DNA of 64,000 nt from a virus (lineage: Duplodnaviria > Heunggongvirae > Uroviricota > Caudoviricetes): the IMG/VR virus record IMGVR_UViG_3300029267_003207; one strand, 5' to 3'. A program made the translations under genes and the position numbers. The notes below the pieces were generated by a model. It saw only the letters and a program-made list of their open reading frames with translations. It had not been told where the DNA came from and did no database searches. Shown here piece after piece: positions 726 through 57,884 of the stretch (the first letter of the stretch is position 1; every line of letters begins with the position of its first letter).

Positions 726-1114
726 TATTTTTCCTCTGTTTCGTATACACGCAAATCTAAAGACGGTACGCACCCGAGTTTAATAGGTTTAAGCCCCAAC
801 GGAATCGGGATTTTATACATAGGGACATCGTTTTCTTCCAGATAGGAAACAAGCTTCTCAACAACATCCATCAAAAATTCTGAAGTGAAATTTGTCTCAC
901 GCATTTTCTCCCAGACATGTTCTACCACATGGTAAGAACTCAATTTAACCATGCTTAGATCAAGTGAAGCAGAATATTTATCTCCTTCATAAGTTACCTG
1001 AAATGTCATAGCTGGTTTTTCTTCAATCTCAATGATTTTTACAATATTTTTGAATGATTTAACGAGTATCTCAGGTGTTAAATCAGCTTGAGCTATTGCT
1101 TCTCTTAGTGTCAT
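725..1114 (-). CDS. hypothetical protein
   Basis: 129-aa ORF packed tightly in the operon; no motif recognised. Confidence 0.45.
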   Translation of the reverse strand: MTLREAIAQADLTPEILVKSFKNIVKIIEIEEKPAMTFQVTYEGDKYSASLDLSMVKLSSYHVVEHVWEKMRETNFTSEFLMDVVEKLVSYLEENDVPMYKIPIPLGLKPIKLGCVPSLDLRVYETEEK

Positions 1115-2459
1115 TGTTCAATTCCTCTTTGAATTTTTTTAATTCATCTATTAAGAAATAAGGATGTCTTCCTTTTTCTTTGTATCTCTTCAGTTTTCCT
1201 TCTTTCAGTAGGTCTTTCACCATCTTATAAGATATTTGTAAAAATTCACATGCTTGTTTGGTGTTGAGCCTGTTTTCCATCTCATACTTAAATTGGACTA
1301 AGTCATCTTCCTTAAAATACAAACGTTCTTGTTTCCTTTTATAGAACTTGACTCTTTTTCTATGTATAAGCTCTTTGAAGTAATCCCATTCAAGGCCAAC
1401 AAACTCACATGCTTCCTTACTAGTTAATTCGCTAGCTCGCTTTTCTCTGTAGGCATCTAAATCTTTTTTCAAAAAATAAAGGCCTACTCCAGGATGGTAT
1501 TTCTTTTCAAGTTGTCCCTTTTTTACTGCGTAATTTATAGCGTACTCTGTTTTATTAAGGTACTCTCGCGCTTCAGAAAAGTCTAATATTTCTTTCAAGC
1601 CAGTTTTAATTTTTTCAAGATCGTCAATATGGTACCATTTAATATTAGTCTTTCCGATCTTTTTGGGCTCGATGTTGAAAAAATCTATGTAAGCCCTAAA
1701 ACGAGTGTCTGTTACTTTTAAAAATCTGCAAGCTTGCATGGGTTTAAAAAAGTCGCCACTGCTTATTTTTTCTAGTTCCTCGATTGAATATGTTTCTTTA
1801 AAATCATTCTTGGTTCTAGAGTCTAAGTCTTTAATCTTTTCCCAAATCTGGGGTCTTTCATTGTAGATAAAGCGTATATCTTTCAGGCTCATAAAAGGGC
1901 AACACCAGCAGGATACTCTTGTTAAGCCTTTATAAAGGCCGCCCCAGTCGTACCCTCTAGCATAACAGTATTCAAGAGCTTCTTTTTCTGTTACTCCCCA
2001 CTCCACAAGAGGGAATCTTCGCTCACCTTTGCTGCTCTGGTTATGCTCTGTTCTATGGGCTTCATCAGCAGCTATACCTAAATAAACTACTAACGGTCTA
2101 TTTTTAGCATCAAAGTAGCCCTCAGTTACAGATATTTTTAAATGACCGGTACACCACCTGGAACGAAGTGTTGGGTGCCCGTAGCCAAGAGTGCCATCTG
2201 CACATTTTACTTTGGTGCAGTAGTAATCATAGTCATGCTCATCACGAAGAGTTTTTATCTCCCGGCCGATATCTTTTGATACCTGTTTTATATGTTCAAT
2301 AGCTTCAGGGTGTTCCATGCCGGTATCACAAAAAACAATTTCGTCGATGTGCATACCTTTTTCGATCATCATTAGTAGCATAGCGGTCGAATCTTTTCCA
2401 CCGCTAAAACTCACAACATGTAGTGGGTCACCTTTTAATACTTTTCTTTTACGTCCCAT
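1083..2459 (-). CDS. PAPS-reductase-like PP-loop ATP pyrophosphatase with three C-terminal HTH-like repeats
   Basis: N-terminus has VVSFSGGKDSTAMLL (the SGGxDS PP-loop). C-terminus carries three ~45-aa repeats (..KEACEFVGLEWDYF.., ..KQACEFLQISYKMVKDLL..) that look like MerR/excisionase-type DNA-binding HTH. Confidence 0.7.
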   Translation of the reverse strand: MGRKRKVLKGDPLHVVSFSGGKDSTAMLLMMIEKGMHIDEIVFCDTGMEHPEAIEHIKQVSKDIGREIKTLRDEHDYDYYCTKVKCADGTLGYGHPTLRSRWCTGHLKISVTEGYFDAKNRPLVVYLGIAADEAHRTEHNQSSKGERRFPLVEWGVTEKEALEYCYARGYDWGGLYKGLTRVSCWCCPFMSLKDIRFIYNERPQIWEKIKDLDSRTKNDFKETYSIEELEKISSGDFFKPMQACRFLKVTDTRFRAYIDFFNIEPKKIGKTNIKWYHIDDLEKIKTGLKEILDFSEAREYLNKTEYAINYAVKKGQLEKKYHPGVGLYFLKKDLDAYREKRASELTSKEACEFVGLEWDYFKELIHRKRVKFYKRKQERLYFKEDDLVQFKYEMENRLNTKQACEFLQISYKMVKDLLKEGKLKRYKEKGRHPYFLIDELKKFKEELNNDTKRSNSSS

Positions 2460-3415
2460 TAGAATTTCAACGCTTTAAATAACTCATTATTGTCCATTAA
2501 AGTGGCAGCTTTGTTCAAATTTTCAAGCTCTTGATCATTTTCTTCTTTCGACATGTCCATGAATATATGGCCGTTTTGGATGTTATTCCAAGCAGTCTGT
2601 AGTCGATGGAGAAGTGTGTTCTGATACAACTTCGAAAGCTGGCCTCTATGTTGGGCGACTCTGACAAGAGGACGCGGAGAACTTGGCTTACAAGCAAGCT
2701 GATCAACTGCGACAATGACATCTGTTCCAACTGGTTCCTTTAGTACCCACGCGTATATACATAACTGGTCGGCCCACTGCTTTCCGCCTTCTTCAAACGG
2801 CGTGGCACCAATCTCGTAATCACCGATCAATTTTGGGCTGTAATTCTTGTGGGCTTTTCCATTGTTTCGAGAAGGCTTGGCCGTTTCCTCGTTCCATGTA
2901 TCCCATACCTTCTTGTAGTTTTTGGCGGGGCTTGTTGTGTACTTAGAAAAGTAGCCATTCACCTTCCAGTCTAACAAAACTCGCTTTCCATCATGCCTTG
3001 TGTATAAGCAGTCTGGTTTTCCTAAGAGATTGACTCCTTCAACTTCCCGTTTAACCAAAAACTCAAAACGCGCTGACTCTCCTTTAAGAATATCCTCTAA
3101 AAGTTCATCATACGCGCCTACTTTTTTGTAGCCATCAAATAAGTACTGTCCGATCTCTTTTACTTCATCCCTGTTATGCTTTTCAACTTGGGACTCAAAC
3201 AAAGTGTCAAACTCGAACTGGTCATCAACTTTCCCAAAAATAGCTTTATATAACTCATGTTTAACAAAGGCATCAAAGGAAGAACCAACCGCCATTGCTG
3301 GTGTTTGTGGTTCCCTAGGAAGACGAGTATCTGCCAAGTAATTATAGAAGAAGGCATGAGGGTCAGTCTCATACGTATTCAAACTAGTAGGAGACAGGTA
3401 TTTAATTGTTCTCAT
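2459..3415 (-). CDS. PD-(D/E)XK family nuclease (Cas4/RecB-like fold without a Cys cluster)
   Basis: N-terminal SPTSLNTYETDP motif and a core GKPDCLYTRHDGKRVLLDWKV (D...D/ExK). Confidence 0.55.
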   Translation of the reverse strand: MRTIKYLSPTSLNTYETDPHAFFYNYLADTRLPREPQTPAMAVGSSFDAFVKHELYKAIFGKVDDQFEFDTLFESQVEKHNRDEVKEIGQYLFDGYKKVGAYDELLEDILKGESARFEFLVKREVEGVNLLGKPDCLYTRHDGKRVLLDWKVNGYFSKYTTSPAKNYKKVWDTWNEETAKPSRNNGKAHKNYSPKLIGDYEIGATPFEEGGKQWADQLCIYAWVLKEPVGTDVIVAVDQLACKPSSPRPLVRVAQHRGQLSKLYQNTLLHRLQTAWNNIQNGHIFMDMSKEENDQELENLNKAATLMDNNELFKALKF

Positions 3416-3617
3416 GCTTTACCATCATCTTCCTAACTGTATTGGTTTCTGGGTTACGAAGAAACACTTCAGTGAAACCAGCGTCTTGTTGCTTAGTAAA
3501 ATAATATAGCAGTTGAAAAGCCCTTTGGGCAACACTTCCAAGAGATTCATTTGGTTCTTTAATCTCTTGTATGGCTTTCATTGCGTCTTTTTTTAATAGT
3601 ACAGGGTATTCGTCCAA
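3402..3617 (-). CDS. hypothetical small protein (start uncertain)
   Basis: 71-aa ORF. The predicted TTG start lies inside the TnpB right-end sequence, so a downstream ATG (MKAIQEIKE) is more plausible. Confidence 0.3.
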   Translation of the reverse strand: MDEYPVLLKKDAMKAIQEIKEPNESLGSVAQRAFQLLYYFTKQQDAGFTEVFLRNPETNTVRKMMVKHENN

Positions 3618-3760
3618 GTCTCTAACTCCTTATGTTAGTTCTCGTTTCACTGTCGGCCACTGGCAAGTTGCCTGTAACTTTACCAACTCCACGAGCGTTA
3701 ATTTCCGCCAACTCAGCGGTATGTTTTAGATTGATAGCTGCGTTAAGGTCACGATCAATT
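3560..3760 (-). ncRNA. candidate omega-RNA (reRNA) region: tnpB 3' end plus right-end flank
   Basis: Inferred from known TnpB biology, where the guide RNA derives from the tnpB 3' end and right end. The last ~110 nt of tnpB plus ~10 nt downstream are conserved in a second copy at 26262..26375. The exact RNA ends are not determinable from sequence. Confidence 0.3.
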
Positions 3761-4767
3761 TGCAACCCACAACTACATTTATAAACTCTATCTGATAGCT
3801 TCATATTTTTCAAGCTACCACAATTTGAACATAACTTAGTTGAAGGAAAATAGCGATCTACTATCTGAACTTCAACGCCCGCCCAAGCTGATTTATATTC
3901 TACTTGCCTGCGAAATTCTCGCATGTTTGCATCAAGAATGTGGCTTGAAAACTTTTTCATCGAGCTAACTGCTAAGTCTTCTAAAACTACTACTGAAGGT
4001 TGCTTGGTTCTCACAATCTCACTAGTAGCTTTATGGGTTGCATCACTTCGAATGTTGCTAATTTTCAACCACAAACGAGCAAGTTTCACCTTGAGCTTGT
4101 TATATCTGTTGCTTCCTTTTACTCTTCGACTTAGCTTTCTCTGAATATGCTTTAGTTTCTTTTGAAATCGAAATAAGGCTTTTGGATTAGCAAAGACTGT
4201 TCCGTCAGAACAGGCTGCTAAATTTCTAACTCCTAAGTCTATTCCTATAACTCCATTTTTCTCTTCATTAAGCTGAGTTTCTTCTTCAACTTGAAGAGAA
4301 ACAAACCACTTTCCAGCACGCTCACTGATGGTTGCGCTTGTTGAAGTGGTATGTCTACCTAATGGTAAGTAGTTCCTTTCTTTGAGCCTAACCCAACCAA
4401 TTTTAGGGAGCTTTATTTTTCCGGCTTCAACAGTAAAGTAGCCCTGAAGAGTAAATGAAATCTTTCCATGTTTCGACTTGAACTTAGGGTGCTTACTCAT
4501 CTTCTTGAAAAATCTTGAATAAGCCTGTGAAAGATGGCGCAAGCTATAAACTAAAGCCGTGTTACTGACTCCATATAAGAAGTCATTTTCTTGCTTATGT
4601 TCAGTAAGTCTCTTATTCAACCAGAAAGCATTTGGTTTGAACTCTCTTTTTGAAATCTTCTCCAGAGCCCAATTCCATATAAAACGAGTGCAGCCAGCAT
4701 GTTGCTTGAAAGAAGCAATTTGCTTTCTATTCGGCTTTAGCTGTGTTTTATATGACTTATGAGACAT
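3622..4767 (-). CDS. tnpB: TnpB (IS200/IS605 OrfB-family RuvC-like RNA-guided endonuclease)
   Basis: RuvC-I GIDLGVRNLAACSDG, RuvC-II VVVLEDL, zinc ribbon CSNCGS..KCSCG, RuvC-III DRDLNAAINL. 381 aa. No Y1 transposase nearby. Confidence 0.85.
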   Translation of the reverse strand: MSHKSYKTQLKPNRKQIASFKQHAGCTRFIWNWALEKISKREFKPNAFWLNKRLTEHKQENDFLYGVSNTALVYSLRHLSQAYSRFFKKMSKHPKFKSKHGKISFTLQGYFTVEAGKIKLPKIGWVRLKERNYLPLGRHTTSTSATISERAGKWFVSLQVEEETQLNEEKNGVIGIDLGVRNLAACSDGTVFANPKALFRFQKKLKHIQRKLSRRVKGSNRYNKLKVKLARLWLKISNIRSDATHKATSEIVRTKQPSVVVLEDLAVSSMKKFSSHILDANMREFRRQVEYKSAWAGVEVQIVDRYFPSTKLCSNCGSLKNMKLSDRVYKCSCGLQIDRDLNAAINLKHTAELAEINARGVGKVTGNLPVADSETRTNIRS

Positions 4768-4782
4768 ACCTTCAAATTTCTA

Positions 4783-5028
4783 CTAGTCCACCTTTAATTC
4801 TAGTTTTGCTTTCTCTATTTTAGTTCTTAGTTTCTGACATTTGTTACTGAGCCGATTAACATGCTCTTTTAGTTCATATATACATTGAAGTTCATAGTTT
4901 TCATGCTCTTGCCAATCATCGGCATAGCAATCCCATGAGCAGTATCCTTCACTCAACGGGTGGAGATCATAGTCATACCCACAATTAGAACAATAATGAA
5001 AATCAGTTCCACATTTTCTACATGCCAT
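4783..5028 (-). CDS. zinc-ribbon protein
   Basis: CRKCGT..CSNCG plus CSWDC, then a coiled-coil C-terminus. Ends 15 nt upstream of the tnpB start. Confidence 0.4.
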
Positions 5029-5490: not shown

Positions 5491-5505
5491 AATTATTCTC
5501 CAAAG

Positions 5506-5577
5506 AGCCGCTGCTCGGATTTGAACCGAGATATACTGCTTTACAAGAGCAGTGTCTTACCGTTAGACAACAGCGGC
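5506..5577 (-). tRNA. tRNA-Thr (anticodon UGU)
   Basis: The reverse complement folds by hand into a cloverleaf: acceptor GCCGCTG/CAGCGGC, anticodon stem CTGCT/AGCAG with loop CTTGTAA, T-arm CTCGG-TTCAAAT-CCGAG. Confidence 0.7.
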
Positions 5578-16266: not shown

Positions 16267-17503
16267 TGTCTACCTCTATTTTGTACCGTTTCGGTCCTTC
16301 TAACTCAGCTTCTTGATCTCTAAGCTTAACAGGAAGTCGCCAAGTTACTCCGTGTTTCTCATTAACTCCGTGTATAAGCTGAATAGGCTCTGACATTTTA
16401 CCTAGAGAATTATAGGCATAAGCATCAGTTGCTACCCAAGCACCATTTACTAACTGCTCCCCATCAACACCACTAATACTAGCTGGTGTATGAAAATGCC
16501 CGCAACAGAAGTATCGATTATTTGGGCGAATATCCTTCTGACGCATTAGAAGTTGGAATCGCTGTTGACGGCGTTCAAGTCCGTACCAAGGAATTCCTAG
16601 ACTGCTTCTGACATCATCGCCATGAGAAAGATTGAACAGATTATTTTCAACCAGTATATTAAAAGTGAAAGTATCCGGAATAAGAAACCCTACGTTTTTC
16701 AAATCTCTACAATGTAACTCAGCTATCTTTGCGATCAAATAATCCCAGTTATCATGTGCGCCATGGTAATCCTTTTTCTTTGATCTACGCCCATGGTTAC
16801 CTGGAACATACACGACATTTATATCTTGAAAATATGTGGATAAGTCACGGTACATAAGAGCATGTAACTCACCAATTGCAAGGCAATTTTTGAATTGGTT
16901 CTTGAACTCACTTCGCGTGACGGCACCATGAATCTCTCCACTTGTGAAATCACCATAGCAAAGAATAGTAAGCTTTGGGAAACTATAGCTGTTAGCTAAA
17001 GTAGTTTGTGTCCACTTCAAAACAGTGTCAACATACTTCTCAGCCCTGCAACAACTCACAGAGAAATCGTGCTTCTCAAGACCACCGCATTCACTAGGAA
17101 CGACAATTTGGTCGTGGTGACCATCAGACATGTGCATAACTAGATGCTCAGTCAGCCGCCCTTTAGGTTTGCTCACAGCCTTCAATGGTGGCGATTCGAA
17201 TGGTTCTATAACATCTACAAGCTCATCTACAATACAATCAAACAAACCTTGTTGCTTTGCTGCTTCCTTCAGCTTCTTTAGAGCTAGATTTCGTTCAAGC
17301 TTTAGATGTAGAATTTCCGTTTTCAGCTTGTCAATTTCTGACGTATCCTCATTTAGGGATATACCGTCAACCAATCCTCGACATACATCTGATATATAAC
17401 TCCTACTGTAACCAAACTCCTCTCCAACTTCTTTTTGAGTTTTGCCTTCAGCTAGTCTTGCTTTAATCTTTAATAATTCTTCTTTGGTCATTTTTTCTCC
17501 CAA
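16253..17503 (-). CDS. HTH domain fused to calcineurin-like metallophosphoesterase
   Basis: N-terminal HTH (KTQKEVGEEFGYSRSYISDV). Phosphoesterase motifs MSDGHHD, CYGDFTSGEIHG, VPGNHG, CCGHFHTP. Confidence 0.6.
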   Translation of the reverse strand: MGEKMTKEELLKIKARLAEGKTQKEVGEEFGYSRSYISDVCRGLVDGISLNEDTSEIDKLKTEILHLKLERNLALKKLKEAAKQQGLFDCIVDELVDVIEPFESPPLKAVSKPKGRLTEHLVMHMSDGHHDQIVVPSECGGLEKHDFSVSCCRAEKYVDTVLKWTQTTLANSYSFPKLTILCYGDFTSGEIHGAVTRSEFKNQFKNCLAIGELHALMYRDLSTYFQDINVVYVPGNHGRRSKKKDYHGAHDNWDYLIAKIAELHCRDLKNVGFLIPDTFTFNILVENNLFNLSHGDDVRSSLGIPWYGLERRQQRFQLLMRQKDIRPNNRYFCCGHFHTPASISGVDGEQLVNGAWVATDAYAYNSLGKMSEPIQLIHGVNEKHGVTWRLPVKLRDQEAELEGPKRYKIEVDNETI

Positions 17504-18096
17504 ATAGGTGTCACTTTTTTACCTGTGTGCAATCGTTTGTGATCTCCCCTAGACAAAAGCATCAAATTTTCAGGTTGGTTATTTTGCCCATTTTCATCAA
17601 TGTGGTGTACTATTTCATTCTCTTTAAGCGGCCTTCCTAACTCTAATGCTACAACAAGTCTATGTTCAAATACTTCTCCTTTATTATTAGCCATGCTAGA
17701 AAAGCATTCAGGGCACTTAACATAAATATAATTAGATACAAAACCACCTTTCCAACTAGGATGTGTGCTTCCTTTCTTCAATTTGTGCCTAATTTTTGAA
17801 GAATTATCCCCTCTCCATATCGAAAGATCAATGCCATTGATTTCATATTCAAGTTGACTCTTCTTATCTGGGAATAAAGCTAAATTGGTAAGGGCGTTAT
17901 TTTTATTGTTTCCATCTAAATGAAAAACGCACTCTTCTTCTTTCAAGGAGCGACAAATTTCAATTGCAACAAGTAGCCTTGATTCCAAAACCCTGCCAGT
18001 GTACTTTACACGTTTAAGCACACTAGGTATCCTATAAAGAGACTTACCACAAACACTGCATACACAATTAGCCTCTCTAGTCATCAGTTGCCTCAA
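17488..18096 (-). CDS. HNH homing endonuclease (duplicated HNH_3-like module)
   Basis: EHRLVVALELGRPLKENEIVHHIDENGQNNQPENL plus a degenerate second copy; zinc ribbon CVCSVCG. Confidence 0.7.
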   Translation of the reverse strand: MRQLMTREANCVCSVCGKSLYRIPSVLKRVKYTGRVLESRLLVAIEICRSLKEEECVFHLDGNNKNNALTNLALFPDKKSQLEYEINGIDLSIWRGDNSSKIRHKLKKGSTHPSWKGGFVSNYIYVKCPECFSSMANNKGEVFEHRLVVALELGRPLKENEIVHHIDENGQNNQPENLMLLSRGDHKRLHTGKKVTPIWEKK

Positions 18097-18238: not shown

Positions 18239-20098
18239 TTATCCATTATATACCTCTCTGATGATAAGGGGTTTACGTTCTTTCTTTACTTCTTCTTGAT
18301 CCCCAAATTCCATCAAGTAATCTATTGCTCTCTCGAACCATAATGGTTCTTCACCAGAGAAGATAGCTTTCTTGATGTCGAGATTCTGAAGATGCTTTTT
18401 CTTTTCTCGCCATTCTCCAGTATTAACGATTTGAGCTAATTTATTTATCCATTCTTCCTCGCTGTATGTATTCCAATCTTCCATGCCGACCCGTCGATTC
18501 AAAACAGTTCCCACTTTAGTTCGGAATGTATCTCCATCGCAATTAAGAAATGGCATATCAAGATATAAAGCTTCAACCAAAGTATTGAAACAACCAAAGT
18601 TACTTGGAGTAGAATTAAGAAGTATGTCCGAGTTCTCTTCCGTGTGTTTCATATAATCAAAGTATTCAAACTCCGACCAAACTTTTGCTTTATCTCCAAA
18701 TATAGCATGGATATCTCGCATGAATGGAAGTACAGCACAATTTCGGTTGATAGAAATGCTAGGATAAAAATGCAACTTGGCCGGTTTCTCAAATTTATCA
18801 ACCGCTTTCTTTAGGTTCATAAGCAGTGGGTAGCAATACTTATCGGGTCCCCAAGTTGCTTGAATTATTACTTCATCGTGGTCCTTGACAATTCCACGTT
18901 TCTGGTAATTTGGATAAGATGCTAGACACCCCATACCCGGAATCAAAACCATCCGCTCGGTGTACTTATCCTGGACCTTAGAAATATCTTCAACTTCTTC
19001 ACCACCAAGGAAGTAATCAATCTTACTTCCAAAGGTACTGGCTGGATGTCCGTAGCTCATAACTTGAATCGGTGCAAGACGCAAATTGCTCATTAGAACA
19101 CTTTCCGGTGTCATTCCAATATCAGCATAGTATAGCATCTTGAAATCATTTTTAGTGATTCCTTCAATTCCGCTGTCTTCAAGATAGATCACGTCGTCGA
19201 AACAATCCGTCATGAGTTCTCTCGGCTTATAGCCAGTATGTATCAATGTCACATGGTACTTTCCAAACAGTCGCTCAATTAATGGTCGAGCACTTTTACA
19301 CACCGCGCTATTAGGAAACCATTTAGAAGTAACAAGGGCGATCTTGTTATCCTTTGGTGTATTTACTATATTAAGATCAATACTTTGACGTTGACAAGCA
19401 TTGTTGATCTTAGGCTTGTGGACAGCGTCGCAGTCTCCATCAATATAGCTTGAACTGAAATAAGTCACATGGCAAGAATCTTCAAACACAGTTAGACGGT
19501 CATCAGTTTCCTGATAAAATCGTTTCATGTTTTTATAGAGAAGCTCACTTGTAGGACTGGCACTAGGAGCCAACGCTGAGATATACCAACGAGAAGCCAA
19601 ACCAGGGTTAATGTCAAAGAACTTACTTATAGGTAACTGAAGCTCATTACGAACAGTGTATAGAAAGCAAACCTTTGGTAAATTATTTTCCTGCGCAAGA
19701 ACAACTTGAAGAACTGCATCTGTCGTCTTGTAAAGCGACATAGCAACCACGTTGGCAAAAATATGGCAATTTGCCGCATAGATTAAAACTCTATCCTTTG
19801 GCACTAGAAAATTTGGATCTGCCATTACTGAAAAAACGGTGGTTACGAACCTGTTCAACAACCTAAGACCGGTTTCGTCTAATCTTCGCAACGTGTTTTC
19901 AGAGTAAAAACGTAGTACTTTTAAAATTGCCTCACTTACAACTCTGTTATCGCCCCTAGAAATAGTTTTAATAATTTCGCGGTGATCCAAAGCTGGAATC
20001 GGGCCGCTATTATCGATCAGCTTGTTCAACTTCAAATTTTCATTTGACTCATGCTTCTTGGCCCACTTGCGATTATGTCGTCTATTCTTTTTGCTCAA
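18239..20098 (-). CDS. GT41-family (O-GlcNAc-transferase-like) glycosyltransferase
   Basis: LRLAPIQVMSYGHPASTFGSKIDYFLGGE parallels the OGT catalytic-domain block (R)PAPIQVSWLGYPGTTGA..MDYIITD. The C-terminus parallels the OGT C-lobe (NCDGDTFRTKVGTVLNRRVGMEDW vs LCNGHTTG..LASRVAASQL). Confidence 0.55.
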   Translation of the reverse strand: MSKKNRRHNRKWAKKHESNENLKLNKLIDNSGPIPALDHREIIKTISRGDNRVVSEAILKVLRFYSENTLRRLDETGLRLLNRFVTTVFSVMADPNFLVPKDRVLIYAANCHIFANVVAMSLYKTTDAVLQVVLAQENNLPKVCFLYTVRNELQLPISKFFDINPGLASRWYISALAPSASPTSELLYKNMKRFYQETDDRLTVFEDSCHVTYFSSSYIDGDCDAVHKPKINNACQRQSIDLNIVNTPKDNKIALVTSKWFPNSAVCKSARPLIERLFGKYHVTLIHTGYKPRELMTDCFDDVIYLEDSGIEGITKNDFKMLYYADIGMTPESVLMSNLRLAPIQVMSYGHPASTFGSKIDYFLGGEEVEDISKVQDKYTERMVLIPGMGCLASYPNYQKRGIVKDHDEVIIQATWGPDKYCYPLLMNLKKAVDKFEKPAKLHFYPSISINRNCAVLPFMRDIHAIFGDKAKVWSEFEYFDYMKHTEENSDILLNSTPSNFGCFNTLVEALYLDMPFLNCDGDTFRTKVGTVLNRRVGMEDWNTYSEEEWINKLAQIVNTGEWREKKKHLQNLDIKKAIFSGEEPLWFERAIDYLMEFGDQEEVKKERKPLIIREVYNG

Positions 20099-20586
20099 AT
20101 TTTCACCTTTTTTCCACTAACTAAAACCTCTGAACCTATATCTTCCAATATTATAAGCTTAATGCCAGCTCTCCTGAGAATTTTATGCCCCAACTCAATT
20201 TGTTTTTTCCATGCTGGCATTGCGTCAATTGCTGCTTTAGAGGTTATAACCTCTTTAATTTCTGCTGCTACTATGGCCTTTGCGCACTCAGTACAACAAG
20301 CTGCCGTGGCTGCTAATCCAACATCGTGTGGGTGACAATTTTTTAAGTATTCGTATAATGCTGCTTGTTCCGCATGAAGCATAATTGGATATTTATCAAA
20401 CTTCTCAAGATCACTAATTTCAAAACCCTTTGAAAGCTTATTAGGCTCAGAGCTAAGAATCTCAAATGTCTCAAGATCATAGACTATGGCACAAATTTGT
20501 GTTCTCGGATCATCGCTGTCATTAGTTCCTAAAGCAGCTTGTCTTAATAACCATTTGTGATCTCTAAAAGTTGAATAATATCTCAT
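20095..20586 (-). CDS. dCMP deaminase
   Basis: Zinc ligand motifs HAEQAA and AACCTECAKAI (PCxxC). Confidence 0.8.
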   Translation of the reverse strand: MRYYSTFRDHKWLLRQAALGTNDSDDPRTQICAIVYDLETFEILSSEPNKLSKGFEISDLEKFDKYPIMLHAEQAALYEYLKNCHPHDVGLAATAACCTECAKAIVAAEIKEVITSKAAIDAMPAWKKQIELGHKILRRAGIKLIILEDIGSEVLVSGKKVKI

Positions 20587-22103: not shown

Positions 22104-22306
22104 ATTTTCTCCAAAATAAAATGCTTATTTAACTTATAGTCTGTTTGCCAAATGGCTTGTTTAACTAATGAATGGGTAGCTGGAAGACTATTAGATATGG
22201 CGGTAACCACAGTGAAAAAAGAAACTGGTGCATTCTTATCAAGATAGTTTTCTACTGATTTTTGAATAGTTAGTCTATCGAAAACGTAATCTGTTATGCT
22301 GAGCAC
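22100..22306 (-). CDS. hypothetical protein
   Basis: 68-aa ORF. Confidence 0.3.
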   Translation of the reverse strand: MLSITDYVFDRLTIQKSVENYLDKNAPVSFFTVVTAISNSLPATHSLVKQAIWQTDYKLNKHFILEKI

Positions 22307-23118
22307 TTACTACTCCAAATGGGTTTGACTTCTTTGTTTCCGTTTTCAACTTTCATATGATCTGAATGATTCTTGTATAACTCTAAATTATTTATATCGT
22401 CATTTAGATTGTTTCTATCTATATGGTGTACACTTTCCTCTTTTGATAAGGGTCTGCCTAATGCTTTGGCAACAATTAACCTATACCTTGGGACATAACC
22501 ATCAGAATGAGACATTTCTGAAAATTCTTTCGGGCATTTTACTAATACTGCTCGTGTGTGAACTTTATTAGTGAAGCCTTGTTCTATCTTTTCTCTGTAA
22601 AAATCTTTACCTCTCCCGCTCCAAATAGGCTGCGCAGTAAGATTGTTTCTATGAAAAGCTTTATGTGCTGCCCTAGTTTCGAAAAGTTCTAAATTCTCTA
22701 ACCTGTTATCAGTCTTATCTTCATTCACATGGTGTACTGCTTCTTTCTTCAATAAAGGGCGTCCAATTGCCTGAGCAACGATCAATCTATGTTCAGCTAC
22801 TCTACCAGCTTCCGTAGACATGCTCAAATAATCCTTTGGGCATTGTACATATCTATAAGAAACATTTGTCTTCCAACTATGGTGGTTCTTTCCTTTTGGT
22901 TTAACTAATTTCGAGTGTCCTATGCCGACGCACCTGTGGCTACAATACACGTTGTTGAGAATGTTCTTTGGTGTGCGTTCTATTTCTTTGCCACAAATAC
23001 AGCAGTGAACTTTCACTTTTTTACTCTTCAATTTATCTGCGCACACACAACTACAACACACCTGATTTTTACGTCTAGTGGAATACTTTTTATTACACTG
23101 TTTACACACTTTAATCAT
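22294..23118 (-). CDS. HNH homing endonuclease (two HNH_3-like repeats plus zinc finger)
   Basis: AEHRLIVAQAIGRPLLKKEAVHHVNEDKTDNRLENL and RYRLIVAKALGRPLSKEESVHHIDRNNLNDDINNL. N-terminal CKQCNKK..CCSCVC. Confidence 0.7.
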   Translation of the reverse strand: MIKVCKQCNKKYSTRRKNQVCCSCVCADKLKSKKVKVHCCICGKEIERTPKNILNNVYCSHRCVGIGHSKLVKPKGKNHHSWKTNVSYRYVQCPKDYLSMSTEAGRVAEHRLIVAQAIGRPLLKKEAVHHVNEDKTDNRLENLELFETRAAHKAFHRNNLTAQPIWSGRGKDFYREKIEQGFTNKVHTRAVLVKCPKEFSEMSHSDGYVPRYRLIVAKALGRPLSKEESVHHIDRNNLNDDINNLELYKNHSDHMKVENGNKEVKPIWSSKCSA

Positions 23119-25671: not shown

Positions 25672-25942
25672 AATTTACTCCTAGTAATTTTGCCAGCTTT
25701 TCAGCTTTTTGTTCTATATCACGTTGCTCTTCTTCTGAGCGTAATGGTGCTTTATTAATAGTTATTTTAGAATCGCCATCTTTAATGGACCATTGAAATG
25801 CCACACCTTCATAAACAGGTTCTGGGAACTTAGATAAGGCTATAGCAGCAAATTCAATAGGTTGAGATGGATCGTCGAGATCATATAGCATACAATCCGC
25901 ATATTTAGTCTTGACACTATTAACAACTCCTTCGAATCTCAA
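25664..25942 (-). CDS. hypothetical protein
   Basis: 92-aa ORF. Confidence 0.35.
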   Translation of the reverse strand: MRFEGVVNSVKTKYADCMLYDLDDPSQPIEFAAIALSKFPEPVYEGVAFQWSIKDGDSKITINKAPLRSEEEQRDIEQKAEKLAKLLGVNYG

Positions 25943-26268
25943 TTAAATTTCCTCCAATCCCGGATAAACTGTTTAACCTTTCGGAACTTCCTGTTGTATT
26001 TCTCCTCAAAGATAAAATCAAAAGGCTCAATCTCGTCATCCATTAGATAATAACCGTTATCCAAAGCTTTGCCAAGAAGATTCATTGCTTGGAGAAAGGT
26101 CACTTTTTTATCATTTAGCAAGTTGTCAAGTTGCGTTGTTTCTTTACGAGTAAGTTCCAGTTCTTCGACTACATCATCACGTAATTCTGCAATTGCTTCT
26201 TCATGGTCTCGGGAATCAACAATGTCCTTGAACATGTTTCTAGTAATTTCAACAGCTTTATCTTCCAA
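25939..26268 (-). CDS. hypothetical protein (start uncertain)
   Basis: The predicted TTG start lies inside the TnpB-right-end-like repeat; an internal ATG start is more likely. Confidence 0.3.
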   Translation of the reverse strand: MEDKAVEITRNMFKDIVDSRDHEEAIAELRDDVVEELELTRKETTQLDNLLNDKKVTFLQAMNLLGKALDNGYYLMDDEIEPFDFIFEEKYNRKFRKVKQFIRDWRKFN

Positions 26269-26375
26269 GTCTCTAACTCCTTAATGTTAGTTCTCGTTTC
26301 AACGTCGGCCACCAGCAATATTGCTTGTAACCTTACCAACTCCACGAGCGTTAATTTCCGCTGACTCAGCGGTAT
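26262..26375 (-). mobile_element. Diverged second copy of the tnpB 3' end plus right end (solo RE / omega-RNA scaffold-like remnant)
   Basis: A ~114-nt direct repeat of 3612..3730 at about 85-90% identity with one indel. Similarity starts at the same boundary (tccaagtctctaactcc) and runs ~100 nt into tnpB-coding-like sequence, with no intact ORF. Confidence 0.6.
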
Positions 26376-26401
26376 GAAATTGCTTGGTTGTCACAATTTA
26401 G

Positions 26402-26476
26402 TCTGTGTGAGAGGATTCGAACCTCCGACCTCAGCGCCCCAAACGCCGCGCTCTAGCCAAGCTGAGCTACACACAG
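26402..26476 (-). tRNA. tRNA-Pro (anticodon UGG)
   Basis: The reverse complement folds: acceptor CTGTGTG/CACACAG, D-arm GCTC..GAGC, anticodon stem CGGCG/CGCTG with loop TTTGGGG, T-arm GGAGG-TTCGAAT-CCTCT. Confidence 0.65.
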
Positions 26477-28142: not shown

Positions 28143-28170
28143 ATTATAACAAAAACCCTGAAAAAGTCAA
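28143..28170 (-). promoter_or_regulatory. sigma70-like promoter reading leftward; likely leaderless transcript for the ParB-like gene
   Basis: On the minus strand: TTGACT, 16-nt spacer, TATAAT. The -10 ends 6 nt before the ATG at 28136, leaving no room for an SD. Confidence 0.45.
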
Positions 28171-28723: not shown

Positions 28724-31438
28724 TTGTTAAAAATTCGCGAAGCTGTTGCTAATTTTTTGAGAAATACTGCTGACCAGAATAAGACTCTAGTTAGCTGGTG
28801 GCACCCTGAACTTGAAACCCAGGTTCAAGTTCTAAGTAATACTGGTGAGAAAACTGACTTTGGCGGATTCACCAAAGATGGCGACACTTGGTGGCATATT
28901 CGTTGGCCTAAAAATGGAAAGACTACTCCTACTTGGAAGCCTAAGACTCAAACATTTGATCTCTCTAAGTACGCTGAATCTATTGGGACATCTGGGTGGA
29001 ATTGGGAAGACCACACAAGCGAATTTGTGTGCTTTGATCTGGATAGTGTCGAAAACCACGCAGAAGGACTCTCAGATTCAGAGCTTAATGAATTCATAGA
29101 AAAGGGCGCAGCCTGTGATTATGTAGATGTTTTCTCTTCCACTAGTGGGAAAGGTATTCATTATTATGTTCGCTTTGACCCTGAAAGTTTACCGCCGTCT
29201 GCCAATAGAGTTGAACACAAGACAGTAGCTCATTATGTTCTTAGTAAGCTGAAGCAGGATATAGGCGATAATCTAATAGCTAAACTTGATGTCTGCGGTA
29301 ACATTTTCTGGATTTGGTCCAGAAGAATGACAGATAAAAGCTACCAACATCTTAGCTCCGCAACACGTTTACTCCGATATGATGAAGATTTTGTCGACGG
29401 CTGGAAAGAAAAAGCTGAGGTGGTGAAAACTCCGTACACCACAAAGAGAATCATAACCTCTTATTTCGGTTCTGCCAATCTCAGTAAAGAGCATACAAAA
29501 ATTGCCAATGCTCTTTCTAAAAGCGGCTATAGTTTTGCATATGACCAGTCTGAAAAACGTATAACAACCCATACAAAAGCGCTGCAAGAATTATCTAAGA
29601 GTATGGATAATTTCGTAGGGGCCTTCACTACAAAATCAACCGGAGCGGACACAAAGCAGAATTGTTTCATGTTTCCAGTGGATAATGGCGGGTTCACTGT
29701 TTTTCGTTTTGGCAATGTTAAAGAAGATTTTCCATGGAAGGAATCTAAAAACAAAAACTGCTATTGTATGTTCAACAGTCCTATGGACCCAGTTGAGACC
29801 TTTCTACACTTTAATTTAGAGCATCAACCCAAACATAGTTCCAGGAAGGAGAGATTCTGCGCTGATTGTTTTGAGTCTCTTATCGATGCTCTTAAATTTC
29901 TGGGCTGTGACCATTTCCTAGATGAAAGTATTAAGGAGTTTGTAGACAAGTTTTATATTGAATTGGTTCCTACCACTTCTGATTCACTGAAAATTTGTGT
30001 TGATTCACAATATAAGGAAGCGATTAAAAATCGTGGATTTCAGGAATACTCAAGAGGGCATTTCAAATCTAAGGTTTTGAAATACAAACACAACAGATTT
30101 GGTGTCTATAAAGATAATAAAAAGGATCGCGACGCTCTCCTCAAAGATGATCAAATTATTGAAGTTGAAGGCTTGGAACATATAGCTAGGCACACAAAAC
30201 AACAGGCCATTTATGGAGTAGACTCAACTCAAGAGGGTCAATGGTGGGTTGGCTCAGATATTCCTGGAGAAGGACATAGATTTTGTAGAGTTAGAGGTGA
30301 TAATGATGTTGTAAAAGTTCTACAGTCAGAATATCCAGGAATGTCTGTAGAAACCGCTAAGATTATTTGCGGGGATTTGATAAAAAATCCATGGCTCATA
30401 ACTTGTGTACCATTTCAACCTGAGTATAGCAGAGCTAAGCAGTGGAATATGAGTGCCCCAAAGTTAGTTTTTAAGCCAGCCAATTTGGATGATTGTGAGC
30501 AAGCAACCCATCCTACTTGGGATAAGATTTTTTCGCATTGTGGTCAAGAGCTAGATGAAGTTTTAAAAGACCAACCATGGTATGGTCGCTGGGGACTCCA
30601 TACAGGTAAAGAATATCTAACAGCTTGGACTGCTTGTATGCTATTCGAACCAGACAAAAAACTACCGTATCTATTTCTTCATGGCAACCAAGAGACAGGA
30701 AAATCTTCTTTTCACGAAGCCATACGTCTTTTGATACAGGGAGGTGTTGAAGAGGGGTCGCGGCCCTTAACCAACACAAGCTCTTTCAATGGGCAACTAG
30801 AAGGAACTGTTTTAGTATATATCGAGGAAATAGATTTGTCAAGAAAAAAGCAACAGCAGAATATAGCGTATGAAAGGATCAAGGACTGGACAGTTAGCCC
30901 TTATCTATCTCTAAGGCACATGTATCGACCACCATATTTTGTCAAAAACTATTTGCATTTTGTTCAGGTTGCCAATCAAGTTAGTGCTTGCCCTATTGAT
31001 CAAGATGATACCAGAGTGACAGCTTTATTGGTTCCACCGATAGAAGGAGAAAAGATTCCCACAAATACGCGTGATCAAAGGTTACGAGATGAGGCGCCGA
31101 ATTTTATGGTCACATTAAAACGAGCGCATCGGCGTCTTCCTCCTATGGAAGGAAGGCTAAGGATACCTGTTGTTAAGACCCAGAGTAAATGTCAAGTTAT
31201 TGAGACATTAAGTAATGAACTAATGACTTTTGTTCGTGAAAACTGTCTGGAAAAAAGAACTAAATACACGTCTTTTGGTACATTTTATACTAAGTTCATG
31301 GAGAAATCTCCTTCTGATGTTCATGAGGGTTCTTGGTCTACTAGTAAGGTGAAACGAGAACTTTTAAATAATCATATTGCTGTTGAAGGCTCTGGCAATT
31401 CAGCAACTATTAAAGGTTTAATTTTGAAAGAGGAATAA
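28724..31438 (+). CDS. DNA primase-helicase (AEP/PrimPol domain plus D5-like SF3 helicase); probable TTG start
   Basis: AEP motifs VCFDLDSV and SSTSGKGIHYYV. SF3 helicase Walker A LFLHGNQETGKSS and Walker B TVLVYIEEID. TTG at 28724 sits 7 nt after AAGGAG, whereas the ORF-track ATG at 28616 lies upstream of the promoter. Confidence 0.75.
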   Translation: MLKIREAVANFLRNTADQNKTLVSWWHPELETQVQVLSNTGEKTDFGGFTKDGDTWWHIRWPKNGKTTPTWKPKTQTFDLSKYAESIGTSGWNWEDHTSEFVCFDLDSVENHAEGLSDSELNEFIEKGAACDYVDVFSSTSGKGIHYYVRFDPESLPPSANRVEHKTVAHYVLSKLKQDIGDNLIAKLDVCGNIFWIWSRRMTDKSYQHLSSATRLLRYDEDFVDGWKEKAEVVKTPYTTKRIITSYFGSANLSKEHTKIANALSKSGYSFAYDQSEKRITTHTKALQELSKSMDNFVGAFTTKSTGADTKQNCFMFPVDNGGFTVFRFGNVKEDFPWKESKNKNCYCMFNSPMDPVETFLHFNLEHQPKHSSRKERFCADCFESLIDALKFLGCDHFLDESIKEFVDKFYIELVPTTSDSLKICVDSQYKEAIKNRGFQEYSRGHFKSKVLKYKHNRFGVYKDNKKDRDALLKDDQIIEVEGLEHIARHTKQQAIYGVDSTQEGQWWVGSDIPGEGHRFCRVRGDNDVVKVLQSEYPGMSVETAKIICGDLIKNPWLITCVPFQPEYSRAKQWNMSAPKLVFKPANLDDCEQATHPTWDKIFSHCGQELDEVLKDQPWYGRWGLHTGKEYLTAWTACMLFEPDKKLPYLFLHGNQETGKSSFHEAIRLLIQGGVEEGSRPLTNTSSFNGQLEGTVLVYIEEIDLSRKKQQQNIAYERIKDWTVSPYLSLRHMYRPPYFVKNYLHFVQVANQVSACPIDQDDTRVTALLVPPIEGEKIPTNTRDQRLRDEAPNFMVTLKRAHRRLPPMEGRLRIPVVKTQSKCQVIETLSNELMTFVRENCLEKRTKYTSFGTFYTKFMEKSPSDVHEGSWSTSKVKRELLNNHIAVEGSGNSATIKGLILKEE

Positions 31439-31830
31439 TGTTAAAAGATTCAGGAACACGACGTGAATTCACAAATGGAGCTGTGCGAGACGCACAAGAG
31501 GGTAAAGGTCGTTTCGACTTACTACCTTGGGATTCTTTGTGGGAACTTTCAAAGGTTTTCGAAAAGGGCGCTAATAAATATTCAGCCAGAAACTGGGAGA
31601 AAGGTATAAATTACTCCGCGTTCTTAGATTCAGGAATACGTCATTTGGTCAAATTTCAATTAGGTTGGGTAGATGAACCACATCTAGCTATGGCAGCTTG
31701 GAATATTCTTTGTCTATTGACAACAGCTATTAGAGTGAATAAAGGTACGCTTCCTCCTGAGTTAGCTGATCTACCTTTTGCTAAGTTTATCAGCGTGTCT
31801 GAATTGGAGTTAGATAATGAAGTTTCCTGA
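31438..31830 (+). CDS. putative nucleotide pyrophosphohydrolase-like protein (dATP/dGTP diphosphohydrolase N-domain-like)
   Basis: GKGRFDLLPW...LSKVFEKGANKYSARNWEKG resembles, from memory, the phage dATP/dGTP diphosphohydrolase N-terminal family. Confidence 0.35.
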   Translation: MLKDSGTRREFTNGAVRDAQEGKGRFDLLPWDSLWELSKVFEKGANKYSARNWEKGINYSAFLDSGIRHLVKFQLGWVDEPHLAMAAWNILCLLTTAIRVNKGTLPPELADLPFAKFISVSELELDNEVS

Positions 31831-32461
31831 AATTATAAACTACCATGGTATAAGATCAGCTAGCAGCAATTTATTGTGTGCTATTGACTGTGAGACATCT
31901 GGAACTGAAGCTGGATACCATGAGATTCTTCAGTTAGCTATTCAACCATTAGATGAAAATTTCAAGCCGTATGAAAACATCCTACCTTTCTATGTGTACC
32001 TCAAACCGGACTACCCTGAAAGGGCCACTAGAAAAGCACTTCAAGTGAACGGAATGGACTTGGAGAACCTGAAAAGATTTGGCGTCTCTCAAGAGAAATG
32101 CCATGACTTGTTGATCGACTGGTATAATTCGTTGAAACTGAGTAGCAGTAGGCGTTTATTGCCGCTAGCGCAAAATTGGCCTTTTGATTATAGTTTCCTA
32201 AATAGTTGGTTGGGTCCAGATTTGTTTGGAGAGATTTTTGCCCCACACTATAGAGATACAATGGAGCTTGCTTTAATCATAGCTGATTTACATGCAATGG
32301 GAGGTAGTAGGATACCTTTCAACGCATACAACCTAAAATCACTTTGCAGTTTTTTTGGTGTGACATATAGCCCTGAGTCACATGATGCTTTGGAAGATGC
32401 TCTTGCTGCCTCTAAAGTATACCCACTAGAACTTAATTTTTTAAGGCATTTGTTGAATTGA
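31817..32461 (+). CDS. DnaQ-like (DEDDh) 3'-5' exonuclease
   Basis: Exo I AIDCETSG, Exo II WPFDYSFL, Exo III HDALEDALA. Confidence 0.75.
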   Translation: MKFPEIINYHGIRSASSNLLCAIDCETSGTEAGYHEILQLAIQPLDENFKPYENILPFYVYLKPDYPERATRKALQVNGMDLENLKRFGVSQEKCHDLLIDWYNSLKLSSSRRLLPLAQNWPFDYSFLNSWLGPDLFGEIFAPHYRDTMELALIIADLHAMGGSRIPFNAYNLKSLCSFFGVTYSPESHDALEDALAASKVYPLELNFLRHLLN

Positions 32462-32832
32462 CTAATTTGATTAAACACGCCCGCGAGCATGTTGAGTTGC
32501 CCTGTAAGTATTCTGCAAATCAGTGTCATTTTACTTATATAATGGACGGGTCAAGAATTGTTTCCTGGGGATACAATAAGGTTAAGAAGACACACCCTTT
32601 AGCTAAAAAATATGGGCATTTGTTTAACTGCATTCATAGTGAACTTGACGCTCTGATTAAAGCCAGAGATTCTCTTGACAAGTGTAAAGTAGTGAATGTC
32701 AGGATTAAGAAAAATGGGAATGTTGGCCTATCTAAACCTTGTCCGCAATGTCAAAAAATGCTAGAGGATCATGGTGTTGAGAGAGTTTATTATACAACAG
32801 AGAATGGTTTTGAGGTTTTGGAACTATGTTAA
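32458..32832 (+). CDS. CDA-fold zinc-dependent deaminase (second deaminase in the window)
   Basis: CIHSELDAL (H-x-E) and PCPQCQKML (PCxxC) in a 124-aa protein. Confidence 0.55.
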   Translation: MTNLIKHAREHVELPCKYSANQCHFTYIMDGSRIVSWGYNKVKKTHPLAKKYGHLFNCIHSELDALIKARDSLDKCKVVNVRIKKNGNVGLSKPCPQCQKMLEDHGVERVYYTTENGFEVLELC

Positions 32833-57001: not shown

Positions 57002-57532
57002 TTATGTCACACGACTCATTTTAAACAAGTGGCTATCCCGTAAGAAAGGCCTCAAGAGTCGCCATGCCTTGGCACTAGGTACGCCATTGGCAATATGTTC
57101 CATGCTTACGTTATTTCTGTCGTAAGTTGTTCTGACGGAAGAGATTGTTTGTCCTATTACTGCTAAGTTCTCTGCTTCCATGTCAGGATCGATACCATCC
57201 AGAAGTGCGTAAGCTACTTCCCAGCAAGCTATCTTTATATCATCTGGAACGTTTGTGTCCGTCCCACGAGGAAATTCTAGCTCCTGAGAAAGATAAGCGG
57301 CCCGAATTTCTGCTTTGGTTGGTGCCGGGTCCACCAAGTCACCATCGCTATCATAAAGAATAGCATAGACTGCCGCTTTTTCCCCGGAAAAATTTAATCT
57401 ATCGATGATTTGGGTCGCACCAATTAGAGCTTGTTCGCGTTCAGTGGCATTGGCGCTTGTCCAAGTTGTTGAAAACAGCCTATTATCAAAATAGGTATTT
57501 GCTTCGTCTACTGTCCCATAATACGTGTACAA
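57002..57532 (-). CDS. hypothetical head-associated protein
   Basis: 176-aa ORF. Confidence 0.3.
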   Translation of the reverse strand: MYTYYGTVDEANTYFDNRLFSTTWTSANATEREQALIGATQIIDRLNFSGEKAAVYAILYDSDGDLVDPAPTKAEIRAAYLSQELEFPRGTDTNVPDDIKIACWEVAYALLDGIDPDMEAENLAVIGQTISSVRTTYDRNNVSMEHIANGVPSAKAWRLLRPFLRDSHLFKMSRVT

Positions 57533-57578
57533 GTCTCTAATTCCTAAATACTAGCTTTAGTTTGGCCACTAGTGGTAT

Positions 57579-57884
57579 TTACCACGCTACGAATGAGTAA
57601 TTAACTGTATTTGCTTCCGCTGCTACGTTAATTGTGTTTGGGGTGGAGATCGGAAGAAAAACCTTTTCTCCAGCACTAAGAGAATAGTTTCCTCCACCGC
57701 CCTGATTAGCGGTTGAATAAATAAACATAGCGTCGTTATTAGAGGCATCAGCTTTAATTGTGATACCCTCCACCAAAGTGATTCCGGTACTTGTGTTGAT
57801 CGTAACTCCGGTTAAACTATTGGTAGAGCCACTTCCCAACCATACTTTGTCGATAATAAGTCGTTTAGTTTCTGCTTGCCACAT
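57579..57884 (-). CDS. hypothetical protein
   Basis: 101-aa G/S/T/N-rich ORF. Confidence 0.3.
   Translation of the reverse strand: MWQAETKRLIIDKVWLGSGSTNSLTGVTINTSTGITLVEGITIKADASNNDAMFIYSTANQGGGGNYSLSAGEKVFLPISTPNTINVAAEANTVNYSFVAW

Follow-up and report, generated by a model that had tools for sequence, protein, structure and literature searches.

A probable transposase-less TnpB-omegaRNA element of the IS607 lineage at a phage gene start, with a predicted role in homing

The window analyzed here, the 64,000-nucleotide (nt) stretch of IMG/VR record IMGVR_UViG_3300029267_003207, is a tailed-phage genome fragment with genes for a P22-type coat protein, a tape measure protein, PolA, PhoH and a ligase. 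Its minus strand carries an intact gene for an RNA-guided nuclease of 381 amino acids (aa), tnpB (3622..4767), set between an 81-aa zinc-ribbon gene (4783..5028) and a 71-aa gene of no known family (3402..3617), after which comes a PD-(D/E)XK nuclease gene. A spacer of 15 nt (TAGAAATTTGAAGGT; 4768..4782) with a GAAGG ribosome site used by tnpB separates the stop codon of the 81-aa gene from the ATG of tnpB, the distance stated in an earlier note that was made from the window sequence. The span 3560..4782 given there for tnpB takes in the open reading frame (ORF), the remainder being downstream flank and spacer. The note placed the gene in a phage early operon; the co-directional block of DNA-metabolism genes is there, the label "early" was not borne out, and no convincing promoter or terminator was found beside tnpB.

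Three Pfam domains exceeded their cut-offs in the protein (HTH_OrfB_IS605, OrfB_IS605 and Cas12f1-like_TNB), the NCBIfam model guided_TnpB scored 298 bits against a cut-off of 100, and a search of solved structures in the PDB returned the TnpB chains 8iaz and 8exa/8h1j as top matches (E 1e-45 to 1e-52). In an alignment of the window protein with 24 homologues at 49-87% identity, the RuvC residues D177 (IGIDLG), E263 (VLEDL) and D338/D340 (IDRDLNAA) were invariant, and the four zinc-finger cysteines (C313/C316/C331/C333) did not vary. The full RuvC triad and zinc ribbon that had been read as catalytically intact thus withstood alignment. Comparison of copies at four different sites gave ratios of nonsynonymous to synonymous substitution rates (dN/dS) of 0.09-0.16, and such strong purifying selection between copies weighs against an inert passenger. 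Judged from these alignments, the nuclease is intact and kept by purifying selection, and cleavage itself is predicted. The presence of tnpB in phages is common and already known: 427 INPHARED records matched the protein, the best at 40% identity. Metagenomic homologues fell into a tight group at 72-98% identity (P0001-P0004) and a broad one at up to 58%. A scan of JGI metagenomes with the protein returned distant relatives only, plus one contig already in the comparison set, and a near-identity DNA search of INPHARED with the window gave no match, the phage being distant from cultured phages.

The 3' end of the gene overlaps a structured RNA of ~110 nt, the omegaRNA scaffold (3615..3723, minus strand), which takes in the last 33 codons of tnpB plus 7 nt, ends in AAGGAGTTAGAGACTTG and matches the covariance model with 109.7 bits. 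Compensatory changes were visible in the aligned scaffold regions of relatives. An alignment of nine sequences yielded a consensus fold of three helices and an inner hairpin, with 10 of the 19 pairs compensated and non-pairing cells confined to that short inner hairpin. The covariance model built from it found 56 matches in 99 loci, the great majority adjoining the 3' end of a tnpB match. In the model-derived alignment of 50 distinct sequences, which carries the caveat of being fitted to the model, all 19 pairs covaried and 95.7% of cells paired, compared with ~40% when the partners were slid. Towards the end of the gene, the synonymous substitution rate (dS) is 3-5 fold lower over the final 40 codons, and identity at synonymous sites reaches 0.8-0.96 over the final 30. 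Covariation, the drop in dS and synonymous-site identity together make the structured RNA well supported, so that the fold and covariance check proposed in the earlier note came out in its favor. IMG/VR scans with two omegaRNA motifs returned no matches, and Rfam searches at gathering and permissive thresholds found nothing but tRNAs.

The last bases of the scaffold also start the next gene. This right-end terminus (3615..3631, minus strand) has the layout AAGGAG-N8-TTG and provides the 71-aa gene with a Shine-Dalgarno sequence, AAGGAG, and a start codon, TTG (3617..3615), at which its ORF begins; the terminal hairpin holds the AAGGAG in its loop and stem, and the scaffold closes with the TTG as its last triplet. 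The boundary, ...AAGGAGTTAG-NNNN-TTG, was base-exact at six junctions: positions 3615, 26266 and 57530 of the window and the sister-phage loci L004, L006 and L007. Beyond the TTG the sequences diverge at once, the next ORF begins at that TTG in every case, and the downstream genes are unrelated to one another. The base that follows is G at 3615, at 26266 and in L004 (TTGG), A in L006 and L007 (TTGA), and T at 57530 (TTGT). With up to three mismatches allowed, 0.27 occurrences of the terminus motif would be expected in the window, and three were found. The right end, previously guessed at ~3612, therefore lies at 3615, the last G of the conserved TTG.

The first bases past this boundary form the predicted guide (GACGAATACCCTGTAC; 3599..3614, minus strand), which corresponds to codons 2-6 of the downstream gene; its length of 16 nt was taken from published TnpB systems. 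Across all compared sequences, the predicted guides at 3599..3614 and at the second scaffold copy (guides 1 and 2) matched their own flanks only. When the guides were scanned against IMG/VR, as the earlier note had suggested for the first, guide 1 gave 27 matches, none extending past the 16-mer and none preceded by ATG; guide 2 gave more than 119, likewise without extension and with ATG before 3 of 80. Matches of this kind are attributable to chance.

Elements with TnpB 72-87% identical to that of the window occupy other gene junctions in sister phages (L004/L005, L006 and L007), and two of these sites have an empty counterpart. In L006 the element lies between thyX and a ribonucleotide reductase gene; in L012, from the window's own lineage, nothing separates these two genes, which overlap as ATGA. 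The empty counterpart of the L004 site, found in L035, reads ...TCTAA ATGGCACCGTTAGAC, and the occupied allele of L004 reads ...TCCAA ATGGCAC|AAGTAGCATAT... on the left and ...GTTAGAGACTTGGCAC|CGTTAGAC on the right. At this site TnpB employs the ATG and ribosome site of the gene that it displaced, and the displaced gene now begins at the element's TTG, 8 nt past the element's AAGGAG. The left junction falls inside the start-codon heptamer ATGGCAC, in keeping with the claim that there is no space for a left end. The start codon is ATG in both empty alleles and TTG starts only ~6% of the other called genes in the window lineage, indicating that the TTG is borne by the element. Since the right end supplies a new Shine-Dalgarno sequence and TTG at every junction, the operon stays translatable. 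Only the first 12 nt of the L004 element's guide are matched by the L035 allele, after which there is a one-codon indel (L035 3258-3290 versus L004 1955-1975); this mismatch could be an escape allele or plain drift.

The occurrence of the same element at different junctions, together with two empty alleles, shows that the family is or recently was mobile and not simply domesticated. The earlier note had preferred domestication to a recent insertion; that preference does not stand against sister phages that hold the element elsewhere and a predicted guide that is the element's own insertion flank. In the window phage lineage the insertion is fixed: all close relatives that were recovered, from several metagenomes, carry it. 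Going by the L004/L035 pair, the GAAGG in the spacer upstream of tnpB probably served the displaced gene as its native ribosome site, and the empty allele can be reconstructed as ...GAAATTTGAAGGT ATG|GAC GAA TAC..., which would give the 71-aa gene a good ribosome site and start. Before insertion the site would have been either this native ATG-GAC... start or a continuous 81+71-aa ORF that the element split.

Two further copies of the right end lie in the window. Self-comparison by blastn and tblastn showed that 3613..3723 recurs with 90% identity at 26264..26376 (minus strand) as a stand-alone scaffold of 113 nt, at which only TnpB residues 349-381 are still recognizable. This solo copy matches the full covariance model with 110.2 bits, as well as the copy at tnpB does, and has four changes specific to its lineage, comprising one compensatory pair (G-C to A-U) and two loop insertions. 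Its TTG (26268..26266) starts a 109-aa gene (25939..26268), and the bases after its boundary form the predicted second guide (GAAGATAAAGCTGTTG; 26250..26265, minus strand). A tRNA-Pro(TGG) gene, detected by ARAGORN and Rfam, lies 24 nt upstream on the same strand (26401..26476), and a strong promoter-like site with an 11/12 match (28170..28143, minus strand) precedes the co-directional block that holds both. The tRNA and the solo omegaRNA are thus inferred to be co-transcribed, and the omegaRNA could have its 5' end released when the tRNA is processed. The third copy, an internally deleted relic of ~50 nt (TAAATACCACTAGTGGCCAAACTAAAGCTAGTATTTAGGAATTAGAGACTTG; 57530..57581, minus strand), was recognized from its sequence and a weak covariance-model match. 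It retains AATACC...GTGGCC...TAGGAATTAGAGACTTG, and its TTG (57532..57530) starts a 176-aa gene (57002..57532). It begins at the stop codon of an upstream 101-aa gene, in the structural module near the capsid gene (54703..56100). Full element, stand-alone omegaRNA and relic form a series in which each member keeps the part needed for translation of the downstream gene.

Stand-alone omegaRNAs working in trans are known (Altae-Tran et al. 2021, as summarised in PMC10691335), and, as far as that summary goes, the solo copy resembles them in being a complete scaffold with no adjacent effector and a different guide, in a genome with a compatible TnpB; its activity in trans is putative. It differs from them in that it resides in a phage, 24 nt past a tRNA gene, and doubles as the translation-initiation region of the next gene. 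We give a working second guide somewhat less than an even chance, the alternative being a young deletion product; the further decayed copy in the same genome suggests that the solo omegaRNA may be such a product and not a mobilized unit. Both tRNA genes of the window, the other being a tRNA-Thr(TGT) gene at 5505..5577 (minus strand), ~740 nt upstream of tnpB in the same direction, are located upstream of a copy of the element's right end. In two IMG/VR contigs, model matches were seen without an adjoining tnpB homologue (L037 4306-4417, minus strand, 38 bits; L098 435-531, plus strand, 23.7 bits); these may be stand-alone omegaRNAs in other viruses.

The affinity of the element follows from its relatives. 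The closest ones that keep a transposase, P0009 (54%) and P0017 (52%), each lie 7 nt downstream of a gene with MerR-HTH and Resolvase domains, and a serine recombinase stands alongside tnpB in 14/80 viral and 16/80 genomic relatives. Because the transposase-bearing relatives carry an IS607-type serine recombinase, neither a hairpin end of the IS200/IS605 kind nor a Y1 enzyme is to be expected, and the IS200/IS605 frame of the earlier note, with its Y1 TnpA and left-end hairpins bearing a transposon-adjacent motif (TAM), was that of the wrong family. Its statement that tnpB has no TnpA beside it proved right for the whole 64 kb, which yielded no transposase gene. Neither a Y1_Tnp nor a Resolvase domain appeared at E<=0.01 in 34 mid-sized window ORFs, neither family was among the 25 best-matching families listed in a scan of 68 ORFs, and tblastn with a related serine TnpA gave nothing (best E = 0.085). 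The Y1 (HUH) TnpA of IS200/IS605 was accordingly missing from the window, with Y1 genes next to the relatives not specifically searched for, and subterminal hairpin ends were not seen, the elements having no conserved sequence 5' of the start codon of tnpB. The NCBIfam "exception" models for IS200 and IS607 both scored under cut-off for the window TnpB, so that the assignment to the IS607 lineage rests on gene context. A serine TnpA upstream of tnpB is absent from the window and present in the nearest transposase-bearing relatives; the element is therefore a derivative of the IS607 lineage and not a complete IS607.

Complete relatives show what has been lost. Comparison of L030 with L056 and L032 indicated that the canonical element begins ~260 nt upstream of tnpA (GAACGGTTTACAAC...) and ends in ...GGTTTTGAAGAACGG(T). 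A left end hidden in the 5' coding region of tnpB was ruled out, codons 1-50 having no excess synonymous conservation. IS1341-type elements are non-autonomous insertion sequence (IS) elements that keep both ends. The window element shares with these TnpB-only elements (PMC10691335) a lone tnpB as its only gene, the lack of a transposase and signs of recent mobility; unlike them, it has no detectable left end, has a right end shorter than that of its canonical relatives and is translationally fused into an operon. IS607 elements have neither inverted repeats nor hairpin ends, usually end in GG and use G-rich TAMs (PMC13565253, PMC10690162). With IS607 TnpB/omegaRNA systems such as the CboIStron of Clostridium botulinum (PMC10690162), the element has in common its TnpB clade (by genomic association), an omegaRNA that overlaps the 3' end of tnpB, a guide taken from the right flank, the absence of terminal inverted repeats and the homing logic proposed below. 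In contrast to CboIStron, it lacks tnpA, a left end and the terminal ...GAACGG, finishes at TTG and not consistently at GG, and has left flanks of the type WATG in place of a G-rich TAM. Neither scaffold copy in the window matched the RAGATH-18-type omegaRNA of Rfam, at the gathering threshold or at E<=10, and Rfam scans of the window revealed no group I intron family. The search for TnpA and IS ends proposed in the earlier note thus confirmed the lack of TnpA and left end and added a base-exact right end at six junctions. In L029 (4150-4200), a transposase-less tnpB of 56% identity lies in another operon; its right end is of canonical type (...CCGAGG) and stops 7 nt short of the ATG with which the following gene begins. 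That gene may use the G-rich IS607 terminus as its ribosome site, a hint that the supply of ribosome sites is more general in the IS607 lineage.

On balance, we consider it probable that the locus holds a transposase-less TnpB-omegaRNA element of the IS607 lineage, consisting of little more than the tnpB ORF plus 7 nt, inserted in-line at a gene start and homing on element-free alleles. Homing by IS605 and IS607 TnpB has been published (PMC10690162, PMC13565253), and by analogy RNA-guided homing, directed at element-free alleles of co-infecting phages, is the likeliest function. Among the phage uses proposed in the earlier note, homing and inter-phage competition are accordingly the most reasonable, whereas cleavage of host DNA fits poorly with predicted guides that are the element's own flanks. 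In the proposed mechanism, processing of the polycistronic transcript would release an omegaRNA that carries the first ~16 nt of the downstream gene as its guide (GACGAATACCCTGTAC, or GAAGATAAAGCTGTTG for the solo copy). The TnpB ribonucleoprotein would then cut element-free alleles (...WATG plus target) of related co-infecting phages, predicted to read GAAGGTATG|GACGAATACCCTG at site 1 and ...ATG|GAAGATAAAGCTG, directly after tRNA-Pro, at site 2. Recombinational repair would copy the element in, amounting to homing or gene drive comparable to that of free-standing homing endonucleases in T-even phages. A TTG instead of ATG at the candidate TAM position may spare the element's own junction. 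After insertion the downstream gene would depend on the right end, and we propose that loss would therefore proceed by internal deletion, which would explain both the solo omegaRNA (26264..26376) and the relic (57530..57581).

The likeness to the free-standing homing endonucleases SegF, SegB and Mob of phage T4 (PMC13565253) lies in a nuclease gene placed between conserved phage genes, in the expected cleavage of the lacking allele during co-infection and in co-conversion of flanks. Recognition in the window phage would differ in being by guide RNA and TAM, self and non-self being told apart by the insertion and possibly by the ATG/TTG base. Two HNH_3 endonuclease genes (22294..23118 and 17488..18096, both minus strand) are further candidate homing nucleases in the window besides TnpB.

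Left flanks ending in (T/A)ATG were found at five sites, namely the window (as reconstructed), L035, L012, L006 and L007 (at an upstream ATG, not the TnpB start), and the right end finishes in (C/T)TTG. These sequences would be compatible with WATG as a candidate TAM and with protection of the carrier through the A-to-T difference. Joined into a single lifestyle, a "start-codon swap", the steps would be recognition of a WATG TAM, use of the gene's ribosome site and ATG by TnpB, provision of a new ribosome site and TTG for the gene by the right end, destruction of the TAM by the TTG and arming of TnpB in trans by the tRNA-linked solo omegaRNA; we offer this combination only tentatively, as distinctly less likely to be right than homing as such. 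If true, one base change would serve both to keep the gene translatable and to protect the carrier genome, and the phage would drive two loci simultaneously during mixed infection, which would amount to a viral precursor of CRISPR-like arrangements in minimal form, with two spacers.

Several observations weigh against homing by a mobile element of this lineage. Exact-protein look-ups for the window's own site gave occupied sites only, and searches with homologues of the flanking proteins gave no distant homologues that resolve it; with no empty allele recovered for this site, a current target for guide 1 is hypothetical. The window subfamily ends at TTG, ~9 nt (…AAGAACGG) short of the canonical right terminus ...GAACGG. 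As both this stretch and the left end are missing, transposition by a serine TnpA is doubtful for this element, which has reached at least six sites. Short direct duplications occur at some junctions: TGGCAC in L004, ATGAAAGCAA/TTGAAAGCAA, i.e., (A/T)TGAAAGCAA, at 2056-2065 and 3236-3245 in L007, and weakly GTGGAC/TTGGAC in the window (4786..4791 versus 3612..3617), with none in L006. Serine-recombinase elements of the IS607 type should not make duplications. The candidate WATG is unlike the published G-rich IS607 TAMs and was derived from five flanks, one of them reconstructed and another (L007) taken from an alternative ATG farther upstream. What is said here of expression, RNA processing and cleavage is predicted from sequence.

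Two comparisons bore on how the element may have spread. When a GG core, as for a serine recombinase, was set against a TG (start-codon) junction, GG or GA stood at both junctions in 3/5 elements, which is about the chance level. As for spread by off-target cleavage, right flanks 1 and 2 of the window agreed at 9/16 bases when aligned manually, and those of window copy 1 and L004 at 4/16.

It is unlikely, but worth weighing, that the element is an immobile leftover kept only for the ribosome site and TTG of the downstream gene, its TnpB being of no consequence to the phage and decaying. The decay series within one genome, from full element through the 113-nt solo copy to the ~50-nt relic with Shine-Dalgarno sequence and TTG kept in each, and the loss of both canonical recombination ends are what such stranding would leave behind. 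A decaying TnpB should not, however, be under strong purifying selection across four sites with all catalytic residues invariant, nor should the RNA structure be maintained by compensatory change or the solo copy score as high as the copy in cis.

Of similarly low probability is ordinary cassette exchange, in which tnpB would move like any other moron gene, by illegitimate or homologous recombination at gene boundaries, without an insertion mechanism specific to the element. The junction of the L004 site exists as three alleles, being empty in L035, occupied by tnpB in L004 and occupied by an ankyrin-repeat gene in L033/L034. The left junction of the ankyrin gene, ATGGCA|TAA, is at the same spot as the tnpB insertion (L033/L034, window-type phage, k141_1297638 ~42.4 kb); gene-start junctions may therefore be general exchange points. 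Variable left junctions with microhomologies and a recombination breakpoint inside tnpB in a further relative, L003, point the same way. Random exchange would not, however, produce six junctions with a base-identical right boundary, all of which turn the downstream start into TTG. L003 (ENA ERZ27256796 k141_1715513) is 99.5% identical to window positions 1546..4761 over 3.2 kb, about 13 of the 15 differences (including 6 gap positions) falling within the first ~120 nt of tnpB, and the flank upstream bears no relation to that of the window. Either L003 represents a recombinant phage whose breakpoint lies inside tnpB, or it is an assembly chimera formed via another tnpB copy.

Less probable still is an exapted TnpB serving as a domesticated phage weapon, with guides against host DNA, host defence loci or unrelated competitor phages. 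Fixation of the insertion in the lineage, the lack of a transposase and of recognizable ends and the availability of a second guide RNA in trans would suit such a role. Both predicted guides, however, are the first bases of the adjacent gene, the signature of a selfish element that has not been reprogrammed, sister phages have the same element at other sites, for which empty alleles exist, and the IMG/VR scans stayed at chance level without extension, host genomes not being among the sequences compared. Published TldR proteins, nuclease-dead TnpB repressors of temperate phages (PMC10705468), are likewise phage-borne TnpB homologues with an adjacent guide RNA, but they have no RuvC catalysis and their guide is directed to a host promoter, whereas the window protein has invariant catalytic residues and a guide that is its own flank; its intact RuvC triad rules out identity with TldR.

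Cis-regulation, in which TnpB binding or processing of the polycistronic mRNA would throttle translation of the next gene and this coupling, not DNA cleavage, would be selected, agrees with the AAGGAG in the terminal hairpin and the TTG as last triplet of the scaffold but is improbable, since it does not need the RuvC triad that is nonetheless invariant and has no common regulatory target among the unrelated downstream genes at six sites. Since the scaffold contains the ribosome site and start of the next gene, translation of that gene should face competition from omegaRNA maturation or from TnpB binding, which is plausible as a side effect or secondary function.

The window also contains genes for base metabolism: a MazZ-like dATP/dGTP diphosphohydrolase (31438..31830, plus strand), two genes of the dCMP-deaminase family (32458..32832, plus strand, and 20095..20586, minus strand) and a PAPS-reductase protein with HTH_17 domains (1083..2459, minus strand). 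The bases of the phage DNA may thus be modified, with a possible effect on cleavage by any nuclease, including TnpB.

The nuclease and guide RNA are canonical in kind, and phage TnpB, TnpB-only elements and stand-alone omegaRNAs are already known. In the literature searched, we found no description of an element that inserts base-exactly at gene starts and exchanges the translation-initiation region, of one that has spread to several sites although both canonical ends are lost, or of a full copy, a solo copy and a relic in one phage genome. Cas12 descends from TnpB elements, whose natural biology in viruses has received little study. IStrons, in which an IS605 or IS607 element is combined with a group I intron, likewise lower the cost to the interrupted gene and face a potential conflict between omegaRNA maturation and host-gene expression. 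They reach this result by splicing, whereas the window element, with no detectable intron, avoids the cost in a polycistronic operon at the level of translation, by swapping start codon and ribosome site. The presence of ATG or TTG next to the target may protect the carrier genome, which provides a testable rule for telling self from target, and the compact enzyme (381 aa) with its short scaffold (~110 nt) may interest genome-editing work. Even if the element were only a stranded passenger, it would still be a clear case of an insertion made irreversible by the dependence of a neighboring gene. With several life stages in one genome and occupied and empty alleles in sister phages, gene-drive behavior in phage populations becomes directly testable.

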